Assembly (NCBI GenBank): GCA_018396705.1
Contig: JAGTQZ010000003.1
Location: 168,711-232,710 of the forward strand
Length of the DNA stretch: 64,000 nucleotides
Direction of reading: 5' to 3'
Source: Candidatus Bathyarchaeota archaeon
GTDB lineage: Archaea > Thermoproteota > Bathyarchaeia > Bathyarchaeales > Bathycorpusculaceae
Shown: piece after piece, positions 5,321 to 35,953 of the stretch
Layout of the letters: each line of letters starts with the position of its first letter
Numbering within the stretch: position 1 is the stretch's first letter
Notes under the pieces: generated by a model
The model's input: only the letters and a program-made list of their open reading frames with translations
Databases searched by the model: none
What the model was told of the DNA's origin: nothing
Made by a program: the position numbers and the translations under genes

Positions 5321-5823
5321 TTTGAATGTTTCTTGGTGAAAGCCTCTTTTTTCGCTTCATACTCCATTCTTGTCATAATTGGTTTAGCTGGCGAACCGGC
5401 AACAACCGTGTGTGGAGGCACATCCTTTGTAACAAGGCTTCCGGCACCGACCACGGCGTGTTTGCCGATCTTCACGTTTGGGAGGATTATGCATCCCCCG
5501 CCTATTATGGCGTTATCCTCTATTATGGATGGTGTTATGCATCGACCATTGGGAAATTTGTCATTTAATAAGCTGGTGTTGGGGCCTATAAAGACATTGT
5601 CGCCCACTTTGCACTCGTTTGATATTGTCACGTGGGCTTGTATGTTGCAGTTTCTGCCTATCACAACGTTTCTGCCGATGTCGCAGAAGCTTCCGATGCG
5701 GGTTCCATCACCTATTTCTGTATTGTCGCCTATCACTACGTAGTTCCATATCACGACGTCTTTGCCTACTTGTACGTTTCTGCCTATTATCACGCCTTCA
5801 CCCTTTTTAGGAGTGGGCATCAA
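5317..5823 (-). CDS. Left-handed beta-helix (hexapeptide-repeat) sugar N-acetyltransferase, WbpD/WlbB-like
   Basis: Continuous hexapeptide repeats (IGRNVQVGKDVVIWNYVVIGDNTEIGDGTRIGSFCDIGRNVVIGRNCNI...) in 168 aa, within a glycan cluster. Confidence 0.85.
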   Translation of the reverse strand: MMPTPKKGEGVIIGRNVQVGKDVVIWNYVVIGDNTEIGDGTRIGSFCDIGRNVVIGRNCNIQAHVTISNECKVGDNVFIGPNTSLLNDKFPNGRCITPSIIEDNAIIGGGCIILPNVKIGKHAVVGAGSLVTKDVPPHTVVAGSPAKPIMTRMEYEAKKEAFTKKHSK

Positions 5824-5905
5824 TTTTTCTCCTTTCGCTTTTAGTTATGAACAATGATGTGAAGCTTAAATAGTTTGACGATTTTAGTGTTTTCCACTAG
5901 TTAAA

Positions 5906-6772
5906 GTGGTTGAAATGGTTAAAGAAAGGGTTTTAGTTGTCGGTTTAGGCGAAGTTGGCCGTCCCTTGTTTGAACTGCTAAAAGAATGTGGAAAGTTTGA
6001 AGTTTACGGCTATGATTTGAATACGGATAGAATGCGTGAAATCGGCCAGTCTAAAGATTCCCTGCCCGAAACCGTTGACATAATGCACGTTTGCATTCCA
6101 TGCGTTAATAAAGAGAAATTCGCCGACGCTGTTGTGGGCTATGTGGAGTGTTTCAAGCCTAACCTTGTAATAATAAACAGCACTGTTGAACCCGGCACAA
6201 CCGCGGAAATCTACAAGCGTCTCCGCAAAGCATGTTTCGTGGCGCATTCCCCTGTGCGCGGAGTCCACAAAAGCCTAGAACACATGAAATGGGAGTTGAA
6301 ACGTTGGACAAAATACATAGGCGGAGTTAACGAAGAATCAGCGCAAAATGCAAAAAAGCATTATGAAAAACTAGGATTAAAAACAAAAGTTTTGAAAAGC
6401 AGCCTTGAAACAGAGTTAGCTAAACTTTTTGAAACTACTTACCGGGCTTGGATGATCGTGTGCTTCCAGGAAATGCACAGAATTAGCAGACACTTCGGTG
6501 CAGATTTCGACGAAGTGGTTGACTTTATCGAAGACACACATCGTGTTAGACTAGATAGGCCGGTGATGTTTCCAGGAGTTATTGGGGGGCACTGTTTAAT
6601 TCCCAACGCTGAGCTTCTTCTTAGAAATTACGATTCTAAGCTTCTGCGGTTTATATTTGAATCCAACGAGAGGCGTGTTGAAGAAATGAAAGACAAACGT
6701 GTCCGCGATGAGGTTGCAAAAATTATGAAACGTGTGGAAATTCTCCAAAAAAATTGCAAGATCAATAACTAA
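5906..6772 (+). CDS. UDP-glucose/GDP-mannose dehydrogenase-family protein, short form (NAD-binding and central domains only)
   Basis: Rossmann motif VLVVGLGEVGRPL and a catalytic-Cys-like motif VIGGHCLIPN. At 288 aa there is no room for the C-terminal UDP-binding domain. Confidence 0.65.
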   Translation: MVEMVKERVLVVGLGEVGRPLFELLKECGKFEVYGYDLNTDRMREIGQSKDSLPETVDIMHVCIPCVNKEKFADAVVGYVECFKPNLVIINSTVEPGTTAEIYKRLRKACFVAHSPVRGVHKSLEHMKWELKRWTKYIGGVNEESAQNAKKHYEKLGLKTKVLKSSLETELAKLFETTYRAWMIVCFQEMHRISRHFGADFDEVVDFIEDTHRVRLDRPVMFPGVIGGHCLIPNAELLLRNYDSKLLRFIFESNERRVEEMKDKRVRDEVAKIMKRVEILQKNCKINN

Positions 6773-6802
6773 AGCGTTGAAAAAGTGTAAGGTGAAAAGT
6801 TT

Positions 6803-7726
6803 TTGCATTGGAGGATAACCGTTCGGAAGATGCTTGGCCGCAGGGGCATTTTTCTCCTTAGAAACATCGCGTCGTCTATGGCTTTCTCTTTAAGGCTTAT
6901 TCCTCCAGCAACCAACGTAAAAAGACAAGATGGCATATCTGCTATCACCTGCACCTACAATGAAGAAGACTGGATAGAAGCATCCTTAATGTCGATAAAA
7001 GACCTTGTCAACGAAATTTTGGTGCTGGATTCTTCAACAGACAGAACACCAGAAATTGTGGAAGACCTCCGCGAAAACCATGGGCTTCCAGTTAAGCTGC
7101 ATAGGGTGCCATTAGGCGACATGGCGCATACGAGAAATCTTGGGCTCTCAATGGCAAAGTACAAGTGGATTTTGATATGGGACGCTGACTTTGTGTTGAA
7201 GGATGAAGCCGCATCTATATTAAAGAAGCTTTTGGAAAGCTTAGACGAGAGAAGGTACTATCTTATTTACTGGCCGCACATCTGCCTTGATGGAGATTTA
7301 ATGCATCAAGATCCTAGGAATGCGCTTCATGTTGAACATTGGCTTTTCACATGGAGCCCCAAGTTGCGCTACGCGAAAGTAGGCTTATCCGACAGCCTCG
7401 TGGCTCCCTTGGCCTACTATAAAGTCTTGTATGTTAATGAGCCGTTAAGCTTTCACTTGAGAACCGTGCGGAGCCCAATTAGACTACTTTATAGACATTA
7501 TAGATGGCTTATGCGCAGAGAAGGACTTGAAGGCAAAGTAAACCCAGAGGATTATGTTAAAACGAGAATAAGCCAAGACTTCCAAACAACAGACATTAAT
7601 CAAGCAGCAAACCTATATTTTCAAAAATACCTTTTAAATCTGGTCAAGTACCGTAAGGATGTTTATGGTGATTATCCCCGACCATTAAAAGAATACGCAA
7701 AAAGAAGGTATGGCATAATTCTGTAA
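6803..7726 (+). CDS. Family 2 glycosyltransferase
   Basis: ISAITCTYNEEDWIEASLMSI ... VLDSSTDRTPEIV ... ILIWDADFVL (DxD). The true start may be an internal Met. Confidence 0.8.
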   Translation: MHWRITVRKMLGRRGIFLLRNIASSMAFSLRLIPPATNVKRQDGISAITCTYNEEDWIEASLMSIKDLVNEILVLDSSTDRTPEIVEDLRENHGLPVKLHRVPLGDMAHTRNLGLSMAKYKWILIWDADFVLKDEAASILKKLLESLDERRYYLIYWPHICLDGDLMHQDPRNALHVEHWLFTWSPKLRYAKVGLSDSLVAPLAYYKVLYVNEPLSFHLRTVRSPIRLLYRHYRWLMRREGLEGKVNPEDYVKTRISQDFQTTDINQAANLYFQKYLLNLVKYRKDVYGDYPRPLKEYAKRRYGIIL

Positions 7727-7771
7727 CTTTGATCAAAAGTTATATAGTCTGGCAAATTTACGTGTACTAAA

Positions 7772-9616
7772 ATGGTTGGCATTGTTGGATACACAAAATT
7801 CAAGAATTCTCCATCGAAAACACGGATCCAGCGAATGGCTGGCGCTATAAAAACAAACAGGGACCAAAAAATTGAATATTTCTCAAACGATTTCCTTGAT
7901 GTTGCATCTGTCGCGTACCCAGATATTGGTTTCAGCGAGTTCGCCGTTAATGAGGACGGATCGGTTGGTGTTCTCATTTATGGTAAAATTTTTGGTTTTA
8001 AGGATGAGCTAAAGCTTCTTAAAAATAAGGGTCACTATTTTAAGAATGAGAGCAACTGCGCAGAGTTCATAGTACACGCATACGAGGAACATGGTAATGA
8101 AGTTTTTCGCGATTTAAATGGCTCTTTTTGCCTAACCTTGTATGATGTAAAGGTTCCTAAGGTGCTTTTGGTGACAGATCGTTTCGGAACAAGACCAATT
8201 TATTACACTTTTATGGACGGAGAAATCATCTTTTCGTCTCATTGTAGAGCTATTCTGGAGTGCCCTTTTCCAAGGAAGCTTAATCTTAAGACGCTTGTCA
8301 AGTTCTTATATTATGGGAAGCTAGGCATTTTAGGCGATGAAACATGGTTTGAAGGAATAAAACTCATGCCTTCAGCATCCGTGTTAACATTTACGGAAAA
8401 GGGTTACACTTTAGACAAGTATTGGGATCTCGTCTATTCCGCTCGATCTGTAAATGAAGATGAATTGGTACAAGCTCTTGTTAAAGCCTTCAAAAAGGCT
8501 GTGAACCTTAGAGTTAAAGACTTAGATGGAGTTTCAGTACAGCTTAGTGGTGGTTTAGATTCTCGGTGCGTGCTTGGTGTGATTAAAGAGAAAAGCAATG
8601 TGACAGCCGTGACTTTTGGTATTAAGGGTTGCAATGACATTGCTATAGCCATAGAAGTTACTAAAAGGTTGGGAGTTAGGCGTCTAATAATTAACTATGA
8701 TCCCAACGAGATGGTTGATTATTCTTTTGATGTTGTATCTCTAACTGATGGACAAGCAACAGTGAACGTTAGCTACATCCCATACGTTGCTAAGAAAATG
8801 ATGGAAAACGGGCTTAAATATTACCTACAAGGTTTCATATTTGATGTATTGTTAGGTGGAAGTTTTCTGTCTAAAGAATTCTTTAAAGTTAAAGGTTTTA
8901 ATGAATTTATGCAATCCTTAGAGAAAAAGTATACACTGTTTCAGCCTTCTGAATTAAAAAGACTCTTAAACGTGAGACTTCATAAATACATAGCCCAAGT
9001 CCGAGAAGAATTTGCCAAAACAGCCCGTGAGACTAAGGGGAATACTTTCCCAGATAGGGCAGACTACTTTATTATAACAACGCGTCAGCGACGTTATACT
9101 TTAATGGGTTCTATTTTATGTAGGGAGTTTGTTGAAGAGATGCTTCCAACAATAGACAATGAAGTTATCGAGATAATACGTCGCATACCACCCGAACTAC
9201 GCTTCAATTATCGTATTTACAGAAAGTTTCTTTTTGCCTTAAACTTTGAATTGGCTAAGGTGCCTTACCAAAAGACGCTGTTACCTCCAATTGTGCCCTC
9301 ACGATTTTGGCATCCAGCAATTTTGGTCATCGGTGCACTAAAAAAATTATCAAGAGACGCAATTAGATATAAACACTCTTATTTTGAGTTCAATGAAATT
9401 TTGCGCCGTCATTCTAGATGGATAATTTTGCTCAAAGAAACTTTGATGGATAAAAACGCTCTGATATATAAATTTGGCTACTTAAATAGAGACTATGTAG
9501 TCAAAATCGTAGACGAACATCTTAAAGGACGAAGAAACAACGGAGAAAAAATCGCCTTTCTAATAACCTTGGAAATATTTCTACGAACTTTTTTTGATCA
9601 AGACTTTAAAATCTAA
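7772..9616 (+). CDS. Asparagine synthetase B-like amidotransferase lacking the N-terminal Cys nucleophile
   Basis: N-terminus MVGIVGY compared with the canonical MCGI. PP-loop motif QLSGGLDSR. 614 aa, in a glycan cluster. Confidence 0.8.
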   Translation: MVGIVGYTKFKNSPSKTRIQRMAGAIKTNRDQKIEYFSNDFLDVASVAYPDIGFSEFAVNEDGSVGVLIYGKIFGFKDELKLLKNKGHYFKNESNCAEFIVHAYEEHGNEVFRDLNGSFCLTLYDVKVPKVLLVTDRFGTRPIYYTFMDGEIIFSSHCRAILECPFPRKLNLKTLVKFLYYGKLGILGDETWFEGIKLMPSASVLTFTEKGYTLDKYWDLVYSARSVNEDELVQALVKAFKKAVNLRVKDLDGVSVQLSGGLDSRCVLGVIKEKSNVTAVTFGIKGCNDIAIAIEVTKRLGVRRLIINYDPNEMVDYSFDVVSLTDGQATVNVSYIPYVAKKMMENGLKYYLQGFIFDVLLGGSFLSKEFFKVKGFNEFMQSLEKKYTLFQPSELKRLLNVRLHKYIAQVREEFAKTARETKGNTFPDRADYFIITTRQRRYTLMGSILCREFVEEMLPTIDNEVIEIIRRIPPELRFNYRIYRKFLFALNFELAKVPYQKTLLPPIVPSRFWHPAILVIGALKKLSRDAIRYKHSYFEFNEILRRHSRWIILLKETLMDKNALIYKFGYLNRDYVVKIVDEHLKGRRNNGEKIAFLITLEIFLRTFFDQDFKI

Positions 9617-9756
9617 CGGAATCTCCAGATTTTTCGCAGTATGCCATGCATTAATAGGCCTAAAGTTTGCCAACTAAAGATTAATAGACCTTTTACACCG
9701 AAAAGCTTCATTAACGCATATTTTCTACATATACGTAAAATAAGGACGCTCTAAAA

Positions 9757-10201
9757 ATGAAGCTTCTATTCGTCCTTCCACGCTTACTTTATGTATGCAC
9801 TTTGCATAAGGGGTTATATAAAGAGTGTTTGGATATTTTTTCTCAATTGGATAGGTGAATAGCAAGTCTTCCAAATATAAATATTTTAAGAGATTTGACG
9901 AAAATCTGAATTCACTAAAGATAAAGACCATCCGCCTAAAAGCCATGTGTGAACCACTTAGTCGTCTGCAGTTTGATATTTTGTTAAGATTATAAGAGAC
10001 CTTCACTTACAATTGCACGCAACATTGGAGTAAGTATGGTTAAAGGCGAAATAATTACTCCTTTTGGATAGTGATGTTTTACTTTATCCAGATTATATAG
10101 TAGAGAAGATATTAGAGATTTTTGAGAAACATCCAAACGCTTCAGGGGCGCAAGGATGCATAATTCCTAAAATGTACCCTAAAAAAGCAAGGGACTGTTA
10201 A
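9757..10201 (+). pseudogene. Decayed family 2 glycosyltransferase relic
   Basis: Fragments in different frames: MKLLFVLP...ECLDIFSQLD* ; ...SLTIARNIGVSMVKGEII then a frameshift, then LLLLDSDVLLYPDYIVEKILEIFEKHPNASGAQGCIIP...*. The ARN-G-x(3)-KGE and DSD motifs are typical GT2, broken by stops and frameshifts. Confidence 0.6.
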
Positions 10202-10280
10202 AAATATTTTACAACACTTAACAATTTTGCTTTGGCATTTTACAAGCGATTCTTGTGGACCATTTAGTTATCTTGTTATC

Positions 10281-11351
10281 TTATAATTTATAGTTTTTAT
10301 CTATAATTTTAACAATTTCATTAACAAGTCTACACTCTCTAGTTTTTATTGAGAACTTTCTCTGTATTCTTTCTCGCGCTTTTCCGCCTTTATCTTCTGA
10401 TTTTAATGCTTTTTTGATAGCTTCTGCTGTCGCTTCGGGGTCATTATAGGGCACATAAAAGCCCGTGTCTCCAACGACCTCTGGAAGAGCATACCGCTTT
10501 GTAACAACTGGGACACACCCGCACGCCATAGCTTCAGCCAAAGCCACACTAAAGCTTTCTTGAGCTGACAGTTGGCAATAGACCTTCGCTTTTCTGTAAT
10601 ACTCTAATAGTGTTTCGCTTGAAGCATAACCTGTAAAAACCACGTTGGGACCGGCAATTTCCTTCAGACGTTTAATTGAGTCATCGTATTTTCCGATCAA
10701 GACAAATCTAATTTCAGGAAGAAGTGCCGCTGTTTTTACGAAACACTCTAAGCCCTTCTTCTTTATAGTTAATTCAGTAACTTTCGCGACTGTTATGACT
10801 AAGTCTTCTTTTTTGCCAAGAGGCTTAAATCTGTCAACGTCAACACCGTTATACACAACCTCAAATTTTTCCGGTTTGGCAATCCTCAACATTTCTCTGG
10901 CCGTTGACTCAGAAACGGGTAAAACCATGCTGGCATGTCTCAAAACAAACTTCACTTTAACACGTTCAAACGGCGAAAGCAAAGATCCATAACCAATTTC
11001 TGGAACATAAGCCACCTCGTAGCCGCCTACAACCACCATTGATTTTTTCCTTAAAAGTTTTGAAAATAACACTGCGAAAAGGGCGTTTGTGCCGGCGAAC
11101 CATGTGTAAACCAAATCGACGCGGGTAGTCCATAAAAACATTTTAAGTACATTCAATGAATTTCTAAAAGTTGGTATCTCTAACTCTTTTACGTCAAAGT
11201 ATTTCCTGAGAAACTCCAGATCATTGCGCACAAAACTGGATAACTGGTAGTAGACAAATAAAATCCTGATTTTCTTTCCGCTGTGTTTGTGCATGGCTTT
11301 TGCCAACCAGAAACAAAGGTGAAACATATTAGTTAAATAACTGTTATCCAA
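10281..11351 (-). CDS. GT-B glycosyltransferase (family 4 / group 1)
   Basis: E-x7-E region SAQESFSVALAEAMACGCVPVV and C-terminal GT1 domain features. The start is probably an internal Met (MHKHSGKKIRILFV). Confidence 0.8.
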   Translation of the reverse strand: MDNSYLTNMFHLCFWLAKAMHKHSGKKIRILFVYYQLSSFVRNDLEFLRKYFDVKELEIPTFRNSLNVLKMFLWTTRVDLVYTWFAGTNALFAVLFSKLLRKKSMVVVGGYEVAYVPEIGYGSLLSPFERVKVKFVLRHASMVLPVSESTAREMLRIAKPEKFEVVYNGVDVDRFKPLGKKEDLVITVAKVTELTIKKKGLECFVKTAALLPEIRFVLIGKYDDSIKRLKEIAGPNVVFTGYASSETLLEYYRKAKVYCQLSAQESFSVALAEAMACGCVPVVTKRYALPEVVGDTGFYVPYNDPEATAEAIKKALKSEDKGGKARERIQRKFSIKTRECRLVNEIVKIIDKNYKL

Positions 11352-11369
11352 AACTAAGAATTCAAGCTA

Positions 11370-12494
11370 ATGCTGGTGGAAAAGCGTTTGAACGTAACCT
11401 TGGTTCTTGGCGCTCGCCCCCAAATCGTTAAGTCCGCGCCTTTAATCCATTTAGCAAGCAACGATAAACAAATCCGCTTAGACATAATTCACACGGGTCA
11501 GCATTATGACTATGAGATGACGAAAATCTTTTTCGAAGAACTGAAACTGCCAGACCCGATAGTGAACTTGAACGTTGGAAGTGGAACACATGCGCAGCAA
11601 ACAGCGAAAGTGATGCTCCGCCTAGAAAAAGTTTTGCAAAAACAGAAACCAGACATGGTTATAGTTCCAGGCGACACAAATTCAACACTTGCTGGAGCAC
11701 TAACAGCTGTAAAACTTCATATTCCAATAGCCCACATCGAAGCAGGCGCAAGAAGCTACGACATGCGCATGCCAGAAGAAGTAAACAGACGCCTAACAGA
11801 CCATTGCTCCACGATTCTGTTCACTCCAACAGAAAACTGCACAAAAAACCTCATCAATGAGGGTATAGAAAAGGCGAAAATTCACCAAGCAGGCGACACA
11901 ATGTATGATGTATTGGTTCAGCAACTTCCAAAAGCGGAGAAAAACCCAATTTTAGAGCAGTTAAACCTAGAGCCTAACGCCTATGCTTTATTAACAACGC
12001 ACAGACCGGAAAACGTGGACAATCCTCAAAAGTTAGAGAACATAATGAAAGCCATAATCCAGCTTAACCAATTAACTATAGTTTTTCCAGTCCACCCGAG
12101 AACCCAAAAACAACTCAGAAAATTGAAGCTCTACAATAATATTCAAGGGCAAAGCCACATCAAAATTATCAAGCCCATAGGATATCATGAAACAATAAAG
12201 CTGATAAAAAACGCAGCGCTAGTCTTGACGGATTCCGGTGGAATGCAGAAAGAGGCCTTCTGGCTAAAAACACCGTGCATAACATTACGAGAAACAACAG
12301 AATGGCCGGAAACGGTGGAACTGGGAGCCAACTACTTAATGGGCGCAGACACGCAAAAAATAGTGCACACGGCGACAAAGCTAATAGCGAAAAGGGAAAC
12401 CCGTGAAAAAATTCAAAAGCTGCCTAACCCTTTTGGAGACGGAAAGGCTTCTCAAAGAATACTGGAAACCATTAAATCTTATGGTATAGGCTAA
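11370..12494 (+). CDS. wecB: UDP-N-acetylglucosamine 2-epimerase (non-hydrolysing)
   Basis: VLGARPQIVKSAPL ... HTGQHYDYEM ... VPGDTNSTLAGAL ... HIEAGARSYD ... TDSGGMQKEA are classical WecB/MnaA motifs. Confidence 0.9.
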   Translation: MLVEKRLNVTLVLGARPQIVKSAPLIHLASNDKQIRLDIIHTGQHYDYEMTKIFFEELKLPDPIVNLNVGSGTHAQQTAKVMLRLEKVLQKQKPDMVIVPGDTNSTLAGALTAVKLHIPIAHIEAGARSYDMRMPEEVNRRLTDHCSTILFTPTENCTKNLINEGIEKAKIHQAGDTMYDVLVQQLPKAEKNPILEQLNLEPNAYALLTTHRPENVDNPQKLENIMKAIIQLNQLTIVFPVHPRTQKQLRKLKLYNNIQGQSHIKIIKPIGYHETIKLIKNAALVLTDSGGMQKEAFWLKTPCITLRETTEWPETVELGANYLMGADTQKIVHTATKLIAKRETREKIQKLPNPFGDGKASQRILETIKSYGIG

Positions 12495-12581
12495 AATAAA
12501 CCATCAAGCCCTTCACAAAATTGGGAATATTTTATTAAGGTTTTTCGCTGAGACTTTACACTAACACTTACAGGGACGAGA

Positions 12582-13679
12582 ATGGCGAGAAAAACAGTGC
12601 TGTTTGTGTCCACGAAAGGCGAGAAAACATCCGCAAGCAATGTAAGGATCAAGTACTTCAGACAAGCTCTCGAGGCTAACGGCTACGAAGTCGTTAACTT
12701 TGAGATTGGCTTGAGCGGCTTCAAAAAATATCTAAGTTATTTTTTCAGGTCTCCGCCTAAAAACTTGATTGAAGCTGCGAAGACGGCGAATTTGATAATA
12801 ACAACTTCGCCAACCTTGTTGAACGCTATATTAAGCTATAAAATCGCCAAAAAACAGGGACTGCCGCTGATAGTCGACGTGAGAGATATATGGGAGGAAT
12901 ACGCAAAAACGGCTCACTCCCTAATGCATAGCCTAGGCGTGGTAAAAAGAATAGTTGCAGAATACTACAAGGCGCTAAAATACGCGTCGAAAATTCTCGT
13001 CGTAACAGAACCAATGAAACGATACTATGAGAACGTTCTCGGCAACAGCGATAAGGTCACCGTAATCAGCAACGGCACGGACGTTGGCACAATCAAGTGT
13101 GATAACACAGCCAAACGAAAAGAAGACCTTGTGTACTTGGCGGATTTAAATCACCCTTATCATAACATAGAATTTCTATTTTCCGCACTGAAAAACAGTA
13201 AACTCCGCCTCGTTGTCATCGGTGGTGGCAAGCATTTGGCCGCAATGCAAAGAGAGGTGCAAAATCTCCAAATCACTGATAATGTCTCCTTTGCAGGTTG
13301 GGTTCCATACGAAGACCTCTCTTCCTACCTCTGCATGGCAAAAGTAGGAGTTGTGGGCCGCCCCTTCATCAGCAATGTTGGATATTTATACGCTATTCCA
13401 GTTAAAACCTATGACTATTTGGCAGCTGGCCTTCCAATAGTGGGGTATGGCCCTAAAAATTCAGCGTTAGAAGAATTTATTAAAAGAAACACCATAGGCG
13501 CATATGTAGCTGAGCCTAACCCTCAAATTCTTTCAAGGGAACTAGTTAAGCTGGTTGCTGAGCATGAGAAGTATATGTCAAAAGCCAGAGAGCTTGCAAT
13601 GAACTTTGACAGGCGGAGGCTTGCCCAAAAAGTTGTAGAAATAGTCAACAATACATTGTCTAGACGCCCAAAAATCTAA
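12582..13679 (+). CDS. GT-B glycosyltransferase (family 4-like)
   Basis: 365 aa. The C-terminal half (VSFAGWVPYEDLSSYL ... PVKTYDYLAAGLPIVG) resembles a GT1/GT4 nucleotide-sugar-binding domain. Confidence 0.7.
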   Translation: MARKTVLFVSTKGEKTSASNVRIKYFRQALEANGYEVVNFEIGLSGFKKYLSYFFRSPPKNLIEAAKTANLIITTSPTLLNAILSYKIAKKQGLPLIVDVRDIWEEYAKTAHSLMHSLGVVKRIVAEYYKALKYASKILVVTEPMKRYYENVLGNSDKVTVISNGTDVGTIKCDNTAKRKEDLVYLADLNHPYHNIEFLFSALKNSKLRLVVIGGGKHLAAMQREVQNLQITDNVSFAGWVPYEDLSSYLCMAKVGVVGRPFISNVGYLYAIPVKTYDYLAAGLPIVGYGPKNSALEEFIKRNTIGAYVAEPNPQILSRELVKLVAEHEKYMSKARELAMNFDRRRLAQKVVEIVNNTLSRRPKI

Positions 13680-13723
13680 TGTTACAATGTTTTGCACTGT
13701 CAAATATGATCATTTTTATTTCT

Positions 13724-14683
13724 TCAAAGGTTTAGAATAAAGTTTGCAAGGTTGTCTGCTCCGTCTGGCAAGGTTGGTGGCTTGGTTTCTTTTGCCCTTT
13801 CTATGGCGTTTAATATGCTTTCTAAAGTGATTTCTGAAACTAGCACAGCGTTCACTTTATTCACGTAGTGTTTTGCATCTTCAACTCCAGCGGTTCTTGT
13901 CCATTCGAGATTCGGAACAACGACTATTGGTTTTCTGTAGATGAGTGCTTCTAAAATTGTTGCGCCGAAATGCGTGACCACAGTCTCTGCACCTGCAATA
14001 AGTTCATAGAATTTCGCCGTATGTTCCAAGATTTTCCATTCTGGATGGCGTTTTCTGTATGGTTCCGGATCAACCCTACCTGTTTGTAGCACTACATTTT
14101 TCAGCTTGCTTTTTGAGATCACGTCAAAAAGTTGTTTATGTCCATGAGTGCCTCCCGTTACAAGGATGTATCCTCCGTTCCATGGTTGAATCTCGGGTTT
14201 TGGAATCAGTGGACCAAAAACTATTCCTTTTTTTAGCAGTTTTTTCTGTTCCTCCCATTGAAGCACCGTTACAGTTGAGAGAGGTTGCAGGAGGAGGGCG
14301 CTTTTGGAGGCTTTTGTAAAGCGCACTGAGCTTTCTATGTTAACCACGGGTATATTTTTCATCCACGCGAATAGGCAAGGTGGTATGCAAAAGTTGCTGC
14401 CCGTGCTTACGACGACGTCGAATTTACTTGGAACTTTTTTGAAGGCTTCAGCGAAGGCCTTGGCAAGTTTCGGCAAAAACTCTTTTGTTGGCGTTTTTGG
14501 TTCCCTAGGTTTTAAAAGGAAATCAACGGAGCCGAACTTTTCGAGTCTTTCATAGCTTAATTTGTCTCCTTTAGGGACGAGAAAGTATAAGTTCACTTTT
14601 CCACAGAGCCTCTGGGCTAAGGCGTAGCCGTAGGCGGTATGTCCTCCACCACCAGCAAGAATTAATACGTTTTTGGTTGGCAA
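13724..14683 (-). CDS. Fused Alg14-like / Alg13-like (GT28, MurG/Agl24-type) UDP-GlcNAc transferase
   Basis: N-terminal half: LILAGGGGHTAYG ... VVNIESSVRFTKASKSALLLQP...VTVLQWEEQ (Alg14 GSGGHT and ES-x-ARV...VQW pattern). C-terminal half: ILVTGGTHG ... VVLQTGR ... AETVVTHFGATILEALIYRKPIVVVPN (Alg13/Glyco_tran_28_C pattern). Confidence 0.7.
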   Translation of the reverse strand: MPTKNVLILAGGGGHTAYGYALAQRLCGKVNLYFLVPKGDKLSYERLEKFGSVDFLLKPREPKTPTKEFLPKLAKAFAEAFKKVPSKFDVVVSTGSNFCIPPCLFAWMKNIPVVNIESSVRFTKASKSALLLQPLSTVTVLQWEEQKKLLKKGIVFGPLIPKPEIQPWNGGYILVTGGTHGHKQLFDVISKSKLKNVVLQTGRVDPEPYRKRHPEWKILEHTAKFYELIAGAETVVTHFGATILEALIYRKPIVVVPNLEWTRTAGVEDAKHYVNKVNAVLVSEITLESILNAIERAKETKPPTLPDGADNLANFILNL

Positions 14684-14798: not shown

Positions 14799-16286
14799 TT
14801 GAGAGAAAACCCAATAAGGCTTCAGTATTCAGGTTTCGTAATTTTTTCAGCAAAAATGTTCAGCGTGGCCACTGGTTTTATTTTCCAGTATATGATAGCT
14901 CGTTACACCTCTACAGTGGAATATGGCATATGGTTCAACATAAATGATGTGCTAGGCTATTTTCTGGTTCTTGCCGGGGTTATACCATTTTGGGTTGTAC
15001 GTTTTGTGGCGAGATCTGAGGAGGGGGCTGTGAAAACAGGTGTTCTAGCAAATTTGACTATCTCGTTAGTGGCGACCATTATTTATTTGGTTTCTGTCCC
15101 GCTGATAACTTCAGCCATAGGTGTTCACCAGTATACCAGCCTTTATCTGCTTGCCGCTCTTCAAGTGGTAGAATTTTATATGTTAAATGTGATCGAGGCG
15201 TGTCTTAGAGCTAGGAAGCCACAAGTCTTGGGGTACGGAGCGGTTATCGCTGAAATAATCAAAGTATCTTTGGGATATATCCTCATCATGAGATTACAAA
15301 AGCCTTTAGAAGGTGCTATAATTAGCATAATAACGGCTATAGCTGCTCAGCTAATTTATTACCTAAAACTTTTGGCTGAAGACTTTAAACAGAAAATTGA
15401 ATGGGCATATGTGAAGGAGTGGGTAAAAGGATCAATTGCAAATCTCTATAATGTCTTAGGAAATCAAATAGCCGCCTTCGTTTTCATCCTACTATTCGCC
15501 TACGGCGGAGAGGGGGCTCGAGGCTATTACGGCGCCGCCTCCTTGATAGCAAACATTGTAACATATTCAACCGCTTTGGCGTTTGCTTTATACCCAAAAC
15601 TTTTGGCTGAAGGTAAAAGTGAAGACGTTACAACCTCTTTTAAAACGGTTTTGATGTTTGCAATTCCCATGACTATTGGTGCTCTTGCCGCGCCCGGACT
15701 ATATCTTTCAATCCTTGAACGTGAGTACGCCAGCGCGTGGCATGTTTTAGTCGTCTTGGCTATAGATGCTTTAGTTGCAACAGTATCTACACTTTACGGC
15801 TTTGTTCTTTACGGGTTTGAGAGAGTTGATGAAGGAGCAAAAATATCCTTTAAAGAACTTTTAAAAAGCCGCATGTTTATAGCTTTCTCATTACCGTATT
15901 TTCACTCGGCCATAACTATACCCTCAACGTATTTTGTGTTGACTAATTTCACTTTAAACCAGCCTGTAACGTCGGCTTTTGCGGTGGCTTTGATAAATTC
16001 TGTAGCACGGTTTACCATGTTTCTTATACTGTACATTATGGTTCGTAGAATGATTAAGATGGTTATTCCTTGGAAGAGCATTGCAAAGTATGTTTTAGCT
16101 TCGGTAGTTATGGGTTGCCTTCTCCATTGGCTATGCTTAAGGTTATCTTTAACAAGGGTGTATCAAGCTCTTGGCATAACCGTGTTGGCTGGCATTTTTT
16201 ATTTCGCTTTGCTCATGGTTATAGATGAAAATGCAAGAGTTCTTGTCAAGTCAGCTTGGCTGGAAGTAAAGACAAAGTTCGAATAG
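14799..16286 (+). CDS. Polysaccharide/oligosaccharide flippase (MOP superfamily, Wzx-like)
   Basis: 495 aa with at least 12 hydrophobic segments, at the end of the glycan cluster. TTG start. Confidence 0.75.
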   Translation: MRENPIRLQYSGFVIFSAKMFSVATGFIFQYMIARYTSTVEYGIWFNINDVLGYFLVLAGVIPFWVVRFVARSEEGAVKTGVLANLTISLVATIIYLVSVPLITSAIGVHQYTSLYLLAALQVVEFYMLNVIEACLRARKPQVLGYGAVIAEIIKVSLGYILIMRLQKPLEGAIISIITAIAAQLIYYLKLLAEDFKQKIEWAYVKEWVKGSIANLYNVLGNQIAAFVFILLFAYGGEGARGYYGAASLIANIVTYSTALAFALYPKLLAEGKSEDVTTSFKTVLMFAIPMTIGALAAPGLYLSILEREYASAWHVLVVLAIDALVATVSTLYGFVLYGFERVDEGAKISFKELLKSRMFIAFSLPYFHSAITIPSTYFVLTNFTLNQPVTSAFAVALINSVARFTMFLILYIMVRRMIKMVIPWKSIAKYVLASVVMGCLLHWLCLRLSLTRVYQALGITVLAGIFYFALLMVIDENARVLVKSAWLEVKTKFE

Positions 16287-25799: not shown

Positions 25800-25953
25800 C
25801 CTAGATCAAGTATCCGAAAAACATAAAAGTTTTGTAGAAACTTTGTATGCTGGGAAAGACGCTTCGCTGGGGTTTGCCTAACTCTTCTTTTGAAGGGTTC
25901 GGGCGAATTCGGAAGTTGCGTTTTTCTCAACAAAATTGAAGGAGAAATTAAGA

Positions 25954-28263
25954 ATGAAAAATGTTGGCAAAGTATGGCTTATAATGTTGCTTATGCTTGT
26001 TTCCGCATCATTTTACGCCCTTAAAACGCCAAATGTGGAAGCGGCTGGAACCATTTATATTCGAGCCGATGGATCCATTGACCCACCAACCGCGAACATA
26101 ACTCGAGACGAGTTTAATATGACTTACACTTTTACCGGCAACAATTACGACACCATAGTCATAGAGCGGAGCAACATAATACTTAACGGAGCGGGGTTCA
26201 CGCTTAAAGTGGCAAGTGCTGATGGAATAAGCTTTCAGTATCAAAGCAACATAACAATAGAGAATTTGAACGTGGACGCTGGACCAAACTCATTTGGCAT
26301 ATACGCCTACTATTCCAATAACATAACCATATTTGGCTGCAGGGTTTACTCTTCAAGCACCGGCATAAGCATCTACTACACTTCATACTGCAAAATATAC
26401 GGAAACACCATTGAAGGCAACGGCATAGGCATAAGCATAACAGGCTCAGAGGTTGAGAGCGCCGGACACCACAATTTGATATACAACAACACCGTAGCCT
26501 CCAACAGCAATCATGGAATATACTTGCTCGGCTACAGCAACAGCGTTTACAGAAACAACGTAACTGGAAACAACCGCGGAATCAGTATTGGAGGCAACTT
26601 TAACAACGTTTACGAAAACATTATCACGCGAAACAAATACCCCGACGGGGAAGGTATCTCCATCCATTCACAGGGTGGAGGCTGTAATGTGTCTTATAAT
26701 TATGTCGCAGAAAACACCTGGGGCATTATACTGGGAGCTGGTCATGGCGACTATACGCCTAACACTTTGAAAGGCAATGTTATGGTGAACAACAGCCGCA
26801 TAAACTTCGGACTCGAAGGCTATCGGGCTGAGATGCCGCACTTATACAATGATGTAGACACTTCAAACACCGTTAATGGCAAACCAATCTACTATTGGAT
26901 TAGTAAAGAAAATGATGCACTTCCATTAGACGCCGGGTTTGTAGCCCTAATTAACTGCAAAAACATAACAGTAGCAAACCTGAACATAGAAAAAAACCTA
27001 GAGGGCATCATACTCGCCTACTCCAACAACTGCACAATTTATGGAAATAACCTTACCGACAACGGATATTCCTCATATTACTACGGTAACATCGCACTTT
27101 ACCGCTCATCAAACAACAGCATATACAACAACAATGTGGCAACAAGCAACTGGAATGGGCATGGAATAGTACTTGATCACGGTTCTTCACACAATACAGT
27201 TTCAAAAAACAACATCACGAAGACTAGTGTCGGAGTTTACCTGCCAAGTGATAGCCATCATAATAACATATCCAGCAACTTTCTTAAAAACAACGGTAAC
27301 CGAGGAATCAGCTTAGAATACTCATCAAACAATAAGGTGCATAACAACGACATATTAGGTCCAGGCAAATACGGTATATACCTTGGCATGGAACACAACA
27401 TCATTTCGGAAAACAACATAACCGCTTATCAACAAGGCGTTTACGTAGTGGGTCAACGGAACACCATAGTCGGAAACAACATTATGGACAATTTGGAAAA
27501 AGGGATCTCGCTGGATGGTTCATTTAACAACTTTACCGAGAACAACATCATGAATAACAACGAAGGAGTTTATCTTTACAGCTATGGTACAAACAACTTA
27601 TTTTTCCACAATAACTTCGTGGACAACAAAAAACACGTAACCTACTACTGGTCCGGCATCGCTAACTCTTGGAATAACACCTATCCTATTGGCGGAAACT
27701 ACTGGACCGGATACGAAGACAAATACCCAAACGCAACTGAACTTAATAATTCCGGTTTATGGGATACACCATACATAATAAACACGAAAAACATTGACTA
27801 CTATCCGCTTATGGCGCCGACAAAACCCATAACGAGAAAGTTCACCGCCTACGACGATACGAAAGTGGAAGTGCGCAGCAACTCTTCCATCTCGCAGTTC
27901 CAATTCGATACAACTGCCAAATCGATAAGCTTCAACATAACCGGACCAGCGGGAACGAAAGGCTTCTGCAACATAACTGTCCCGTTAAACCTCCTCTGGG
28001 GAGACTTCACACTATATATGGACGGTGTCCAACTAGAGGAGGGTGTCAACTACATGAAGACGTGCAATGATGTCCAATGCCTTTTCCATATAACATACAC
28101 CCATAGCGCGCATGAACTTGAAATACTCGGAACAGAAGTCATCCCAGAACGCTTGAGCTTAGCCGCAGTGCTACTGTTTACAATTTTCACAGTTCTAGCT
28201 ACAATCAAAACAAGGAATGGCTTTAACAGAACCAAAGGCTTCCTTTTGCAGCTTCAAGGTTAG
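25954..28263 (+). CDS. Secreted right-handed beta-helix (PbH1/NosD-like repeat) surface glycoprotein with a C-terminal TM anchor
   Basis: Signal peptide MKNVGKVWLIMLLMLVSASFYALK, preceded by gaaggag. Dozens of ~22-aa N-rich repeats (N-x-I-x-x-N-x-I...GI.L). More than 20 N-x-S/T sequons. C-terminus IPERLSLAAVLLFTIFTVLATIKTRNG. Confidence 0.8.
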   Translation: MKNVGKVWLIMLLMLVSASFYALKTPNVEAAGTIYIRADGSIDPPTANITRDEFNMTYTFTGNNYDTIVIERSNIILNGAGFTLKVASADGISFQYQSNITIENLNVDAGPNSFGIYAYYSNNITIFGCRVYSSSTGISIYYTSYCKIYGNTIEGNGIGISITGSEVESAGHHNLIYNNTVASNSNHGIYLLGYSNSVYRNNVTGNNRGISIGGNFNNVYENIITRNKYPDGEGISIHSQGGGCNVSYNYVAENTWGIILGAGHGDYTPNTLKGNVMVNNSRINFGLEGYRAEMPHLYNDVDTSNTVNGKPIYYWISKENDALPLDAGFVALINCKNITVANLNIEKNLEGIILAYSNNCTIYGNNLTDNGYSSYYYGNIALYRSSNNSIYNNNVATSNWNGHGIVLDHGSSHNTVSKNNITKTSVGVYLPSDSHHNNISSNFLKNNGNRGISLEYSSNNKVHNNDILGPGKYGIYLGMEHNIISENNITAYQQGVYVVGQRNTIVGNNIMDNLEKGISLDGSFNNFTENNIMNNNEGVYLYSYGTNNLFFHNNFVDNKKHVTYYWSGIANSWNNTYPIGGNYWTGYEDKYPNATELNNSGLWDTPYIINTKNIDYYPLMAPTKPITRKFTAYDDTKVEVRSNSSISQFQFDTTAKSISFNITGPAGTKGFCNITVPLNLLWGDFTLYMDGVQLEEGVNYMKTCNDVQCLFHITYTHSAHELEILGTEVIPERLSLAAVLLFTIFTVLATIKTRNGFNRTKGFLLQLQG

Positions 28264-32143: not shown

Positions 32144-32353
32144 TTACTCGATTACTTGAATGGCGCTTTCAGGGCATTGAGCTTCGCATGCTCTGCAGAC
32201 AAGACACTCTTCCACTTTCACCGGGACAGATTTTCCGTCCTTTATCTCGTAGACGCCCACCGGGCATGTGTCAACGCATGTTCCACAACCCGTGCACTTG
32301 TGGTTGTCAACTACTATCTTTACCATATTCATCCTCCTTAAACTAGATCTCAT
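32144..32353 (-). CDS. 2x[4Fe-4S] ferredoxin
   Basis: CTGCGTCVDTCP and CLVCRACEAQCP in 69 aa. Confidence 0.9.
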   Translation of the reverse strand: MRSSLRRMNMVKIVVDNHKCTGCGTCVDTCPVGVYEIKDGKSVPVKVEECLVCRACEAQCPESAIQVIE

Positions 32354-32390
32354 CTAGATTTAACGAGTGGGATAAAAATCTTTAGGTGCT

Positions 32391-34139
32391 CTAGCGGATT
32401 TCTTCACGTATTCTCAATAGAATTCCATTAATTGTTGTTTCAGCTTTTTCTTTTCTACGTTGATAGTCGGCGAGAAGTTTACGGTATGCCTCTATGGATA
32501 ATTCGCCCCTTCTATGACGGGCCTCTATGCTTTGGATGTCCGCTTCAACTTCATTGACTTCGGCTTCTGCTGCTTCCAACTGATGCATTAAGTTTGCGTA
32601 TCGGCCTCCAGCGGATCGAATTTTAACTTTAAGCTCATTTAAGTTTCGATTAAGCGTTGTAAGACGTGTTTCCAAAGTCTTCCTTTTAATCTTGTACCTT
32701 CGTCTTGGAATGCGCCCCTTACTTACCGCATTTTCAAGAGACTTTATTTCAGCAAGGATTTTTCTCTTTTCTTCGTAAAAATCGACAAAAGCCTTTATTG
32801 TCTCAAGGGTTAGCTTCACAGCCACTGTTGGAACCATAACGGCCACAGCCGCTGGTGCTTTAGGCTTCCTCCAAACAGCTATGATTGCGCATACGAATGT
32901 GGCTAAAGCCCAAGTCCAAAGTGTGGGCCTGAAAGAAAGCCAAATAGGGTTATACGTGTAGGACGCAATCACTGTAAACGCATCCAATAAAAGCAAACCT
33001 TGCTTGTGCAGTATAATTTTTTCTTGAAAAATCTCCTTGACAGTTCCATAAGTCGTATCGGTTGGAGAACCTTCACAGCTTAAATCCGTTATTTTAGCTC
33101 CTTCTGGAAATGTAAGCGTTATCCATGCTTCTTTAACGTAGTATTTGATATTTTGGAACATTTGCAGTTTAAGTTCATTACCTTTTTCACACCTTGCAAC
33201 AAGGTTGTCTGAAAGTTTGTATTTTACGATAAACCTTGCAGATTCTCCTGTTTTCAAGGACAAAGCTCGACCGGCAAATGTTAACTTCACTTTATAACGG
33301 CTTGAGTTTGCATCAGTCAGTGTGGGTTTTTCCCCCTTTCTTCCAAATTCGTCTTCTACAGTTACGTCAGAGGCATTCGGCATGAGAACGACGTCTATGG
33401 ATGATATCTCTTTTGGCGATTGATTCTTAATGAGGTAACTGTCTGAAACTGTAACTTCCCCCATCGCACCTACAGAGATTTCCCGTTTAAACTCTTCCAC
33501 AGTGAAAAGTTGTATTTCTTCCGTGGTTAAAGAAAAGGTTACGTTGGCCTTTTCATAAACGAAAGGCTGCAATTCAACATCAGCCGCATAGTTGAACCCA
33601 GAAACTGTGCCAGAAACATACTGCGCGTTTGAAGGCAAAACTAGCGAAGCGTTGCAGGAAGCTGCTTTTAACGTTAAGCTTGGAAACGCTGGAAAATCTA
33701 AAGTGAAAAGATTTTTGTTCGTTGCATTTTGTATAAGGAGATTTTGTGAGAGTACAAAACAGACGCTGAAAACACCTCCTTCCGGTGGAGGGTTGAGGTT
33801 TATACTCACGCCATAAAAGCCTACTCGTTCTTCTAGCGGAACACCAGCTACAACATTATATCGTTGCATGGCGTTAGAATGTGAATAAGCCATGCACTCT
33901 AGGATATAAGCACCGTATAAGTACGGTAGGCCTATCAAAAAATTGTCTGGTGGATTACCACCCACCTTAATTGTGTCGTTTATAAGGATATAGCCGTTGT
34001 AAAGAACCTCCACTTTGTGGTTAACCCACTCTACAGTGTATTTGTTTTCCGCCTGGGATCTCTCAACATGAAAAATGTTTAATGCCAAGGTTAAAGATAG
34101 AACAACCCAAACTGTGAACATCAAAGTTTTCCTTTTCAA
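32391..34139 (-). CDS. Type I membrane glycoprotein with a ribophorin I (OST1)-like ectodomain, single TM and coiled-coil cytoplasmic tail
   Basis: Signal sequence MKRKTLMFTVWVVLSLTLALNIF. Ordered motifs FKREISVGAMGEVTVSDSYLIKN / VVLMPNASDVTVEDEFGRKGE / YKVKLTFAGRALSLKTGESARFIVKY / ITLTFPEGAKITDL / IASYTYNPIWL. TM TLWTWALATFVCAIIAVW, then ~165 aa of charged heptad-like sequence. Confidence 0.5.
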   Translation of the reverse strand: MKRKTLMFTVWVVLSLTLALNIFHVERSQAENKYTVEWVNHKVEVLYNGYILINDTIKVGGNPPDNFLIGLPYLYGAYILECMAYSHSNAMQRYNVVAGVPLEERVGFYGVSINLNPPPEGGVFSVCFVLSQNLLIQNATNKNLFTLDFPAFPSLTLKAASCNASLVLPSNAQYVSGTVSGFNYAADVELQPFVYEKANVTFSLTTEEIQLFTVEEFKREISVGAMGEVTVSDSYLIKNQSPKEISSIDVVLMPNASDVTVEDEFGRKGEKPTLTDANSSRYKVKLTFAGRALSLKTGESARFIVKYKLSDNLVARCEKGNELKLQMFQNIKYYVKEAWITLTFPEGAKITDLSCEGSPTDTTYGTVKEIFQEKIILHKQGLLLLDAFTVIASYTYNPIWLSFRPTLWTWALATFVCAIIAVWRKPKAPAAVAVMVPTVAVKLTLETIKAFVDFYEEKRKILAEIKSLENAVSKGRIPRRRYKIKRKTLETRLTTLNRNLNELKVKIRSAGGRYANLMHQLEAAEAEVNEVEADIQSIEARHRRGELSIEAYRKLLADYQRRKEKAETTINGILLRIREEIR

Positions 34140-34230
34140 CGGTTTTCCTCCGCTTGCCTTCGAGTCTGGTTTTCAAAGATATTCGAAGAACTATTTATTT
34201 TCTTTTACATTTTCCGAGGTTTTCACGCTT

Positions 34231-34713
34231 CTAGAGGGGCACTTGTGATATGAAATTTGATGCTCTTTTAAGCCTATAAATAAAGACGCTTCTAAGTTTC
34301 CCTTTAACGTCGGGTTGCTTCTCCGTTTGAACCGATTCGACATTGTACTGTCCGAGAAACATGTATTTTCCTGGAGACTTTTTCTCGAAAACAAATAATG
34401 GGAAACGTTTTTCTATCTGCATTTTTAGGACTAGGTTTCCCCTTGTCATTTGCTGATCCCCAAAGCGTCCTTCACCGGTGTACAGGAGAATTTCACCCTC
34501 AAACCTATCGTGGTATGGGTTTTCAACACGCTCCTCTGGAGTCTTAACAATAACCGTTGTGAGAACAACATGCTTAATCCCAGTTTTTAGGCTTCCGCTA
34601 TACCTTATCCCCCGTCGCGTACACACATTGAAAATTCTTGAAATTTCCCGATTGCTGAGGATATCGCCAACCTTCAACCGCATATATCCATCAATGTACA
34701 CATGTGCAGACAA
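34231..34713 (-). CDS. Standalone SRA/YDG-like (PUA-fold) domain protein, putative modified-base reader
   Basis: VGDILSNREISRIF...RRGIRYS...HVVLTT...NPYHDRFEGEILLYTGEGRFGDQQMTRGNLVLK...FPLFVFEK...GKYMFLGQYNV parallels the SRA pattern GI-x-G...sivlsGgY-DD-D-G...YTGsGG...DQ-l-x-gN-aL...pVRV-r...Y-Y-GlY-V. No nuclease domain is attached. Probable start at M11 (34683). Confidence 0.45.
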   Translation of the reverse strand: MSAHVYIDGYMRLKVGDILSNREISRIFNVCTRRGIRYSGSLKTGIKHVVLTTVIVKTPEERVENPYHDRFEGEILLYTGEGRFGDQQMTRGNLVLKMQIEKRFPLFVFEKKSPGKYMFLGQYNVESVQTEKQPDVKGKLRSVFIYRLKRASNFISQVPL

Positions 34714-34793: not shown

Positions 34794-35564
34794 TTGCCCT
34801 ACGATCCTGTTGAACGGCATATTACCGTCGAAAAATTGGTGACACGTCATAGCCCAGAGGGGCAGGAGAGAAAATATTACCGTATAAGACTTGCAAGATG
34901 GTATGGTGGAATAGTCACAGCTGACTGTGTTGGATGCGGTTTATTGTGCCGTTTCTGCTGGGTTTCGGATGTTGTCGCCAATCGACCAGCAAGTGTTGGA
35001 AGCTTTTACACACCAAAAAAAGTTGCTGAAAACCTAATCACCCTTGCAAGAAAATGCAAACTAGACCAACTTAGAATAAGCGGAGGGGAGCCAACCATAG
35101 GGAAAGAACATCTGCTGGCTGTACTTGAAAACTTAGGCAGGGAAAGATATCGTTTCATTCTTGAAACCAACGGCATACTTATAGCTCACGACGAAGACTA
35201 CGCCAAAAATCTGGCAAAATACGATTTCGTCCACGTGAGGGTTTCGCTTAAAGGGTGCAGCGAAGAGGAATTTACAATGCTAACGGGTGCTAAGCCGGAG
35301 GGGTTCAAACTGCAACTTGAAGCCCTCTGGAAGCTTGTTGAGGCTGGTGTAAGCTGCCATCCATCGGTTATGGCTTCTTTTTCAACAAGGGAAAGCCTCC
35401 AATCGCTTATGCATAAACTAAATCAAATAAGTCCTAAACTAGTGGAAGAAATTGAAATTGAAGAGCTTATATTGTACCCGCATGTCATTCGGAGACTACA
35501 AAAGCATGGATTGAAGTATTATTCTGGTTATGCTCCTGAAAGCGTTCCCCCGGAGCAAGTTTAA
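34794..35564 (+). CDS. Radical SAM protein (small archaeal family, function unknown)
   Basis: CxxxCxxC cluster motif CGLLCRFCW, preceded by YYRIRLARWYGGIVTADCVGC. GGEPT SAM-binding motif (ISGGEPTIG). TTG start. Confidence 0.8.
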   Translation: MPYDPVERHITVEKLVTRHSPEGQERKYYRIRLARWYGGIVTADCVGCGLLCRFCWVSDVVANRPASVGSFYTPKKVAENLITLARKCKLDQLRISGGEPTIGKEHLLAVLENLGRERYRFILETNGILIAHDEDYAKNLAKYDFVHVRVSLKGCSEEEFTMLTGAKPEGFKLQLEALWKLVEAGVSCHPSVMASFSTRESLQSLMHKLNQISPKLVEEIEIEELILYPHVIRRLQKHGLKYYSGYAPESVPPEQV

Positions 35565-35953
35565 AGTAATCCACCATGTTTCAGGTAGTAGTTTTCTTCT
35601 TTTTTGGGACCGAAACTTCGAACGCCTTTTTCTTTAAGCTGTTTTCTAAGTTGTAAAGCATATTCACTGCTTATTTCACCCCTTTTCTCCATGTAAGCTA
35701 TTATCTCCTCGGCTTGTTCTTCTGTGTCACATCGGCGTAAAAAGTCAATAACATCTGGGTCATAGTGGATAAAGGGGTCAGCGTGGTTTCTCCGTTTTTC
35801 AGAAACTGCTTTTTCCCCCACTTCAACATTTGTGCGGATAGAATTTATTTGAACTTTGTTTTCGTCTAATTCTATTTCTCTCGCTAGGTTCGGGAAAAGC
35901 TTTTTGAAAGTTTCTTTGTCGAACTCCACATGGTTTACCTTCAAAGGTTTCAT
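35561..35953 (-). CDS. Conserved archaeal protein, DUF2095-like
   Basis: 130 aa. FKKLFPNLAREI ... DPDVIDFLRRCDTEEQAEEIIAYMEKRGEIS ... KGVRSFGPKKEENYY matches my recollection of DUF2095. Confidence 0.5.
   Translation of the reverse strand: MKPLKVNHVEFDKETFKKLFPNLAREIELDENKVQINSIRTNVEVGEKAVSEKRRNHADPFIHYDPDVIDFLRRCDTEEQAEEIIAYMEKRGEISSEYALQLRKQLKEKGVRSFGPKKEENYYLKHGGLL

Follow-up and report, generated by a model that had tools for sequence, protein, structure and literature searches.

The stretch analysed here, 64,000 nucleotides of contig JAGTQZ010000003.1 from a Candidatus Bathyarchaeota archaeon (hereafter the window), carries a gene for a membrane protein that shares ancestry and four-part architecture with OST1, a non-catalytic eukaryotic oligosaccharyltransferase (OST) subunit known in human as ribophorin I or RPN1. 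Ribophorin I/OST1 is routinely counted as an Asgard 'eukaryotic signature protein' (ESP). The gene is probably the Bathyarchaeia orthologue of OST1/ribophorin I, and by analogy with its relatives the product would be an accessory, ribosome-docking partner of AglB, the archaeal STT3. The first-pass annotation of the window had proposed the ribophorin I identity from motif resemblance; profile searches, profile-profile alignment (hhalign) and fold comparison now agree on it, with significant matches to ribophorin I and a predicted ectodomain of the OST1-type tandem beta-sandwich, and neither of the outcomes named at first pass as refuting it was obtained.

Architecture, fold and family profiles

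A Candidatus Bathyarchaeia metagenome-assembled genome (MAG) encodes a 'hypothetical protein' (QXK93_05820) to which the window protein is 100% identical. Its N-terminus, MKxKAL..., and the position of the TTG start are common to the orthologues in an alignment. The gene and its parts are as follows, as located from the sequence, from an AlphaFold model (AF2, with its confidence score pLDDT) and from alignments.

32391..34139 (-), OST1/ribophorin I-like gene, 582 aa, TTG start, TAG stop
34147..34151 (-), GGAGG, ribosome-binding-site-like motif 7 nt 5' of the TTG, read from sequence
34050..34139 (-), predicted signal sequence, residues 1-30, hydrophobic core 5-23, putative cleavage between SQA and EN
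33525..34040 (-), first extracytoplasmic beta-sandwich, residues 34-205, from AF2 strands at pLDDT about 90
32955..33506 (-), second beta-sandwich, residues 212-395, from hhalign and a HMMER alignment to RPN1 274-440
32871..32927 (-), single transmembrane helix, residues 405-423, PTLWTWALATFVCAIIAVW, from hydropathy, the AF2 helix and alignment to the RPN1 transmembrane helix
32397..32807 (-), cytosolic basic four-helix bundle, residues 445-581, from a tail-only model at pLDDT 92 and a match to the crystal structure 8WHN

Thus the open reading frame (ORF) does encode, as first described, a type I protein in four parts: an N-terminal hydrophobic segment, a beta-rich ectodomain, one transmembrane helix and a charged tail. 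In the full-length AF2 model (pLDDT 85), beta-strands span residues 34-395, a helix spans 405-423, and four long helices occupy 445-581. The signal sequence is modelled as a helix at 2-27, with a low-confidence stretch at 25-31 where it ends, and A30 is nearly invariant, being kept in at least 90% of the orthologues. The tail after the transmembrane helix counts 159 aa and begins with a disordered linker. It had been described as a charged coiled coil; charged it is, but in the model its helices pack into a bundle of four and do not form a generic coiled coil.

Type I topology is predicted because the hydropathy peaks fall at 5-23 and 405-423, RKPK follows the transmembrane helix (positive-inside), sequons are confined largely to one side, and the isoelectric points (pI) of the ectodomain and the tail are 5.25 and 10.0, respectively. 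The ectodomain has exactly the seven sequons listed at first pass, N54, N138, N163, N199, N239, N255 and N278, as compared with 3.3 ± 1.6 in ectodomain shuffles (p about 0.03). The mean over orthologues is 9.4 sequons for the ectodomain, as against 0.36 for the tail. Four sites are kept among the 33 aligned orthologues, namely N54 (33/33), N163 (29/33), N199 (28/33) and N255 (31/33), and the invariant N54-D-T sits in the first beta-sandwich. Because these four are conserved, the protein is probably N-glycosylated itself; the distribution of sequons and charge fits an ectodomain outside and a tail in the cytosol.

When the model was compared with the Protein Data Bank using Foldseek, ranks 1 to 8 were all OST1/RPN1 chains from human and yeast OST complexes, with E values of 3.6e-28 to 6.5e-19. 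The top matches include 8b6l_O (3.6e-28), 6s7o_E, 6s7t_E (TMt 0.64) and yeast 6ezn_A (8e-21, TMt 0.62), and the chains without the tail give TMt of 0.61-0.64. The next fold appears at rank 9 with M1 aminopeptidase N-domains (E of 7e-7), so that more than 12 orders of magnitude in E separate it from the OST1/RPN1 chains. The first beta-sandwich aligns with the N-terminal luminal domain of RPN1/Ost1 by Foldseek and by the family profile (RPN1 8-255).

Two HMMER profiles were built, one from orthologues (A1) and the other from 22 divergent family members with P0263 as the first sequence (A3). The window protein is 22-25% identical to A3 members over about 550 aa, with BLASTP E values of 1e-31 to 1e-51. 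The orthologue profile matches human RPN1 at 1e-11 across the second luminal domain, the transmembrane helix and the tail, and 8WHN at 1.6e-10. The divergent profile matches human RPN1 at 2.5e-24 in two stretches (residues 8-255 and 273-604), 8WHN at 5e-21 and yeast Ost1 at 7e-14, and it picks out a fungal OST1 (8e-16) in a search of 5.8 billion sequences. Aligned by hhalign with 18 fungal OST1 sequences, it reaches 99.45% probability (E=4.5e-22) over 380 columns that comprise both luminal domains and the transmembrane helix.

The motif pairs proposed at first pass are reproduced by the HMMER alignment of A1 with human RPN1. There, LPNAS..VEDEFGRK pairs with RPN1 LPAAAQDVYYRDEIGN, LPEGAK with ILPEGAKNIE, YEYNPLW with VHYTFN, and LPLESG.STRFIVKY.LP with the counterpart segment of RPN1. 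In the second beta-sandwich the conserved motifs read EFKREI, LMPNAS..VEDEFGRK, RFIVKY, LTFPEGAK and YTYNPIW. The Pfam Ribophorin_I model, PF04597, falls on this same region in orthologues; 28 of 33 orthologues, 50-72% identical to the window protein, match it at E≤1 (best E of 9e-12), and the members that were scanned one by one score 30-64 bits where the gathering cutoff is 25. Sub-threshold Pfam/NCBIfam matches of coiled-coil and SMC type at residues 440-575 were rejected as compositional noise of the helical tail.

The cytosolic tail and known OST1 proteins

Modelled alone, the tail folds into four helices (pLDDT 92), and its sole Foldseek match below 1e-3 is 8WHN, with a TM-score of 0.84, a root-mean-square deviation of 2.3 Å and 25% identity. 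8WHN is the crystal structure of the cytoplasmic domain of OST1 from the Lokiarchaeon MK-D1, which forms a bundle of four helices and matches the human domain in topology (PMC11417166). Even as a single sequence, the window protein finds 8whn_A by phmmer at 7e-8, and the human RPN1 tail in 8b6l_O compares with the window tail at TMq 0.64. The window bundle is the same domain as the ribosome-contacting domain of human RPN1.

Human ribosomes are pulled down by the MK-D1 and human tails, and not by the MK-D1 ectodomain; basic surface patches of the OST1 tail have been proposed as ribosomal RNA (rRNA) contacts (PMC11417166). The window tail has a net charge of +11 and a pI of 10.0, 24 of its columns are K/R in at least 90% of sequences, and it carries a near-invariant G-R-I-P-R-R-R-Y-K. 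We infer from the likeness to the pulled-down domain and from the conserved basic surface that the Bathyarchaeia tail, too, may bind ribosomes.

Human RPN1 (in OST-A/OST-B; 6S7O/6S7T chain E, 8B6L) has the same four parts in the same order, with 607 residues as compared with 582. It is the best fold match of the window protein (3.6e-28) and LPEGAK is among the motifs in common, while identity is only about 14-16%. RPN1 resides in the endoplasmic reticulum membrane within a complex of 8-9 subunits, whereas no partner-subunit genes were seen in the archaeal window, and the catalytic partner of the window protein would be AglB at the cell membrane, unlike the setting of RPN1.

Yeast and fungal Ost1 (6EZN chain A, 6C26 chain 1) likewise have two luminal beta-sandwiches and a transmembrane helix, but lack the long cytosolic four-helix bundle, and the fungal alignment stops just past the transmembrane helix. 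OST1 of the Lokiarchaeon (Ca. Prometheoarchaeum syntrophicum MK-D1, WP_147663064.1), compared here through its tail (8WHN), does have a basic cytosolic four-helix bundle after the single transmembrane helix. By the tail bundle, the window protein is closer to metazoan RPN1 and Asgard OST1 than to fungal Ost1, although MK-D1 belongs to Asgard archaea and the window protein to a different phylum, the Bathyarchaeia of TACK/Thermoproteota.

Distribution and the conserved gene string

The family counts 385 relatives at E≤0.001, most of them with a precomputed PF04597 match already. Among the 120 listed relatives, the organism names are all Bathyarchaeia/Bathyarchaeota MAGs except for one labelled Nitrososphaerota. 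An exhaustive HMMER search with the orthologue profile returned 620 cluster representatives at 50% identity, 227 of them at E≤1e-30, and most of the 620 have the same length and match over the full length. The gene occurs in at least 151 species in a scan with one genome per GTDB species; in the best 80 of these, 79 are labelled Bathyarchaeia/Bathyarchaeota and one is labelled Acidiferrales bacterium. Because the scan patterns were taken from Bathyarchaeia tail motifs, the scan is uninformative on other lineages. For the divergent clade (about 22-25% identity), the members for which a lineage label was found are P0198 and P0311, both Bathyarchaeota.

The Acidiferrales copy (L063, DASPPK010000007.1), from a MAG labelled 'Candidatus Acidiferrales bacterium', is 42% identical and probably sits on a mis-binned Bathyarchaeia contig. 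Short forms of about 390-425 aa are also present (P0198, P0205, P0208, P0224, P0230, P0233, P0254, P0257 and P0267). They match the profile only from about 205 to 577, that is, over the second beta-sandwich, the transmembrane helix and the tail, and carry about 40-70 additional residues at the N-terminus; these forms may be paralogues with a single domain, or their genes may have been called too short.

Gene order was compared in 81 Bathyarchaeia loci with OST1 identities of 40-71%. A same-strand string of GT4 (glycosyltransferase family 4), nucleotidyltransferase, DUF2095, OST1-like and ferredoxin genes recurs in these loci. The neighbours in the window are the following.

32144..32326 (-), ferredoxin, 60 aa, 2x[4Fe-4S], Pfam Fer4 families, GGAGG at 32337-32333
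34231-34713 (-), SRA/SAD-domain gene, directly 5' of the OST1-like gene
34794-35564 (+), radical-SAM gene, adjoining the SRA/SAD-domain gene
35561..35953 (-), DUF2095 protein, 130 aa, Pfam DUF2095 at 1e-33, 5' of the OST1-like gene

Of the 80 loci with sufficient sequence, 79 have the ferredoxin gene directly 3' on the same strand (median gap of 67 nt), and DUF2095 lies 5' on the same strand in 74 of the 75 loci where it was found. The string of DUF2095, OST1-like and ferredoxin genes (L004-L084, L093) holds down to about 40% OST1 identity, and the more divergent relative P0146 retains it. The gaps given at first pass are correct, with 91 nt separating the gene from the SRA-like ORF and 37 nt from the longest ferredoxin ORF. 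The likelier ferredoxin start is, however, the ATG at 32326 with GGAGG ahead, giving a gap of 64 nt and the 60-aa product that is also called in public assemblies.

The SRA/SAD-domain gene is present in only 25 of the 81 related loci and the radical-SAM gene in 36, and neither is found in the 53%-identical L004. Both look like an insertion into the conserved string; as it occurs in only 25 loci, the SRA-like gene is an insertion rather than a partner. Horizontal gene transfer or a compositional anomaly of the OST1-like gene was considered and rejected, its GC content (41.5%) being within the range across the window (36-49%) and synteny being stable across the class.

The spacer between the OST1-like and ferredoxin genes (32327-32390, (-)) has a T5 run and an inverted repeat, CTAGAT-GAG-ATCTAG, with flanks TTAAA/TTTAA. 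It folds at -15.9 kcal/mol with the ferredoxin GGAGG paired in the fold, and the hairpin may act in termination, in attenuation or in translation.

In a divergent clade (L085, L086 and L089-L092, the L089 gene being at 6001-7740) with about 26% identity to P0263, a ferredoxin-thioredoxin reductase beta-like gene lies 54 nt 5' on the same strand with a peroxiredoxin gene nearby, and an unannotated 358-aa gene lies 100 nt 3'. Another divergent locus has neither the reductase beta-like nor the peroxiredoxin neighbour.

A proposed role beside AglB and its alternatives

As a ribosome-docking partner, the OST1-like protein would sit in the cytoplasmic membrane beside catalytic AglB and the SecYE channel. 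Its tail would grip the translating ribosome, with basic residues on rRNA, and its ectodomain would adjoin the emerging polypeptide, so that sequons might be presented to AglB during or just after translocation.

Several results weigh against this. The window protein as a single sequence has no PF04597 match even at E≤10, and the shallow profile A1 reaches only 8% probability by hhalign with the same 18 fungal OST1 sequences (P=0.004), albeit colinearly. Neither STT3/AglB nor OST3/6 was found among 40 window ORFs scanned against Pfam, a set that left out nine ORFs of at least 110 aa outside shadow ORFs. No ORF with the WWD[YFW]G motif was found in the window, nor up to 10 kb from the gene in 84 related loci, a search with no positive control in the data that reads as 'not adjacent' only; genomic linkage to the catalytic subunit is thus lacking. 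The ferredoxin and DUF2095 have no known glycosylation role. Lastly, the only binding experiment paired a Lokiarchaeon tail with human ribosomes and included no TACK protein.

The first of these reflects insufficient sensitivity of a single Pfam model for a single sequence and leaves the profile and fold results intact, and the A1 alignment was superseded by that of the more diverse A3. P0002, 72% identical to the window protein, is also missed by PF04597 at E≤0.01. The Pfam check suggested at first pass accordingly came out negative for the window sequence and positive for the 28 of 33 orthologues, and the 'hypothetical' label arises because the window protein and this relative fall below the sensitivity of PF04597.

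Alternatively, the protein could be a true OST1 homologue that works at SecYE without AglB, as a receptor for ribosomes or a chaperone of nascent chains; it would then have joined an OST complex only through a later Asgard or eukaryote innovation. In favour of this are that a gene with the AglB catalytic motif is never near in the 84 loci, that ribosome binding is the best-supported activity of the family tail, and that archaeal AglB is generally seen as a single-subunit enzyme (PMC10307638). On the other hand, the homologue is an integral OST subunit in every solved complex, and eukaryotic OST1 is a conserved OST component. Moreover, AglB genes commonly lie apart from other agl genes, which makes the missing synteny weak evidence. 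We regard an AglB-free function as rather unlikely.

Much less probable still is that the string of DUF2095, OST1-like and ferredoxin genes serves redox chemistry, such as electron-dependent control of envelope protein maturation, and not glycosylation. The ferredoxin gene stays directly 3' at OST1 identities as low as 40% (79 of 80 loci), the divergent clade has the reductase beta-like gene 5' and peroxiredoxin nearby, and eukaryotic OST has a thioredoxin-like subunit, OST3/6. Yet the OST1-like protein has no cofactor-binding motif, its only conserved cysteines being C82 and C162 in the ectodomain and C417 in the transmembrane helix. Ferredoxin and ferredoxin-thioredoxin reductase are cytosolic, the other divergent locus has no redox neighbour, and gene order may simply have been conserved within the clade. 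Synteny marks the ferredoxin and DUF2095 as candidate partners of the OST1-like protein; the string might encode partners that have no eukaryotic counterpart.

An unrelated surface glycoprotein or adhesin resembling OST1 by convergence, which would suit the coiled-coil noise obtained from the single sequence in Pfam/NCBIfam and the commonness of beta-sandwich folds (M1 aminopeptidase N-domains are among the lower fold matches), is effectively excluded by the fold, hhalign, profile and tail matches, as profiles tie the whole length to RPN1, Ost1 and 8WHN (E of 1e-11 to 1e-24; hhalign 99.45%), domain order, transmembrane position and tail topology all agree with OST1, and no other fold comes within 12 orders of magnitude.

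With an OST1 orthologue beside AglB as the preferred reading, a bolder proposal is that Bathyarchaeia perform eukaryote-style, ribosome-docked, co-translational N-glycosylation with AglB and OST1 at SecYE, inherited vertically from a TACK/Asgard ancestor. We hold this only tentatively and think it doubtful in full. If true, this translocon 'eukaryotic signature' would predate Asgard archaea and become experimentally accessible in a second, very abundant lineage. The presence of OST1 in Bathyarchaeia supports either a pre-Asgard origin of the translocon accessory or an ancient transfer. It also suggests that N-glycosylation by multi-subunit, ribosome-coupled machinery may extend to more archaea than has been assumed.

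In ESP surveys, homologues of Ost1 in prokaryotes are given as 'previously reported in Asgard archaea' (PMC10307638), and one sentence elsewhere places OST1 and OST3/6 in eukaryotes, TACK and Asgard archaea (PMC11417166). The eLife paper on Agl24 treats glycosylation genes of Bathyarchaeota and mentions no OST1 there. In 2024, Ost1 was reported to be absent from P. syntrophicum MK-D1 (PMC11284389), the strain whose OST1 was in the same year identified as WP_147663064.1 and its tail crystallised (PMC11417166). Since absence was reported in the very strain that yielded the crystal, detection of archaeal OST1 is evidently marginal and BLAST-level searches evidently miss it. The clade closest to the window protein falls just under the sensitivity of Pfam, and therefore ESP censuses that use single-sequence Pfam matches undercount OST1.

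The first-pass view that a ribophorin I outside Asgard archaea would be notable stands in part. Its significance is tempered, as OST1 in TACK archaea had already been stated in one paper (PMC11417166) and most orthologues carry an automatic PF04597 match; OST1 of Bathyarchaeia had, however, been mentioned rather than characterised. What is new here is an OST1 conserved across Bathyarchaeia species, the retention of the ribosome-binding-type bundle, and an unexplained conserved gene string.

Other glycosylation-related features of the window are located as follows.

4319-14683, glycan-biosynthesis cluster, ending with the fused Alg14/Alg13-like gene
13724-14683 (-), fused Alg14/Alg13-like (Agl24-type) glycosyltransferase, part of the glycan cluster
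25936-28263 (+), predicted NosD/beta-helix surface protein, 23 sequons in 775 aa
50609-52288 (-), predicted CarboxypepD_reg/Big_1-like surface protein, 17 sequons in 559 aa

The cluster comprises a DUF354 glycosyltransferase, a hexapeptide acyltransferase, a UDP-sugar dehydrogenase-like gene, a GT2 gene (glycosyltransferase family 2), an AsnB-type amidotransferase and a GT4 gene, followed by a UDP-GlcNAc 2-epimerase, a GT4 gene and the fused Alg14/Alg13-like gene. The Alg13/14-like enzyme noted at first pass is thus real, but its gene is 18 kb distant from the OST1-like gene. Next after the cluster comes a 495-aa ORF (14799-16286) that has no Pfam match. Sequon-laden surface proteins had likewise been noted, and two were found, with about 3 sequons per 100 residues as compared with at most 1 in most other ORFs. 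The glycan cluster, the Alg14/Alg13-like gene and these sequon-rich surface proteins indicate that the organism clearly invests in N-glycosylation.

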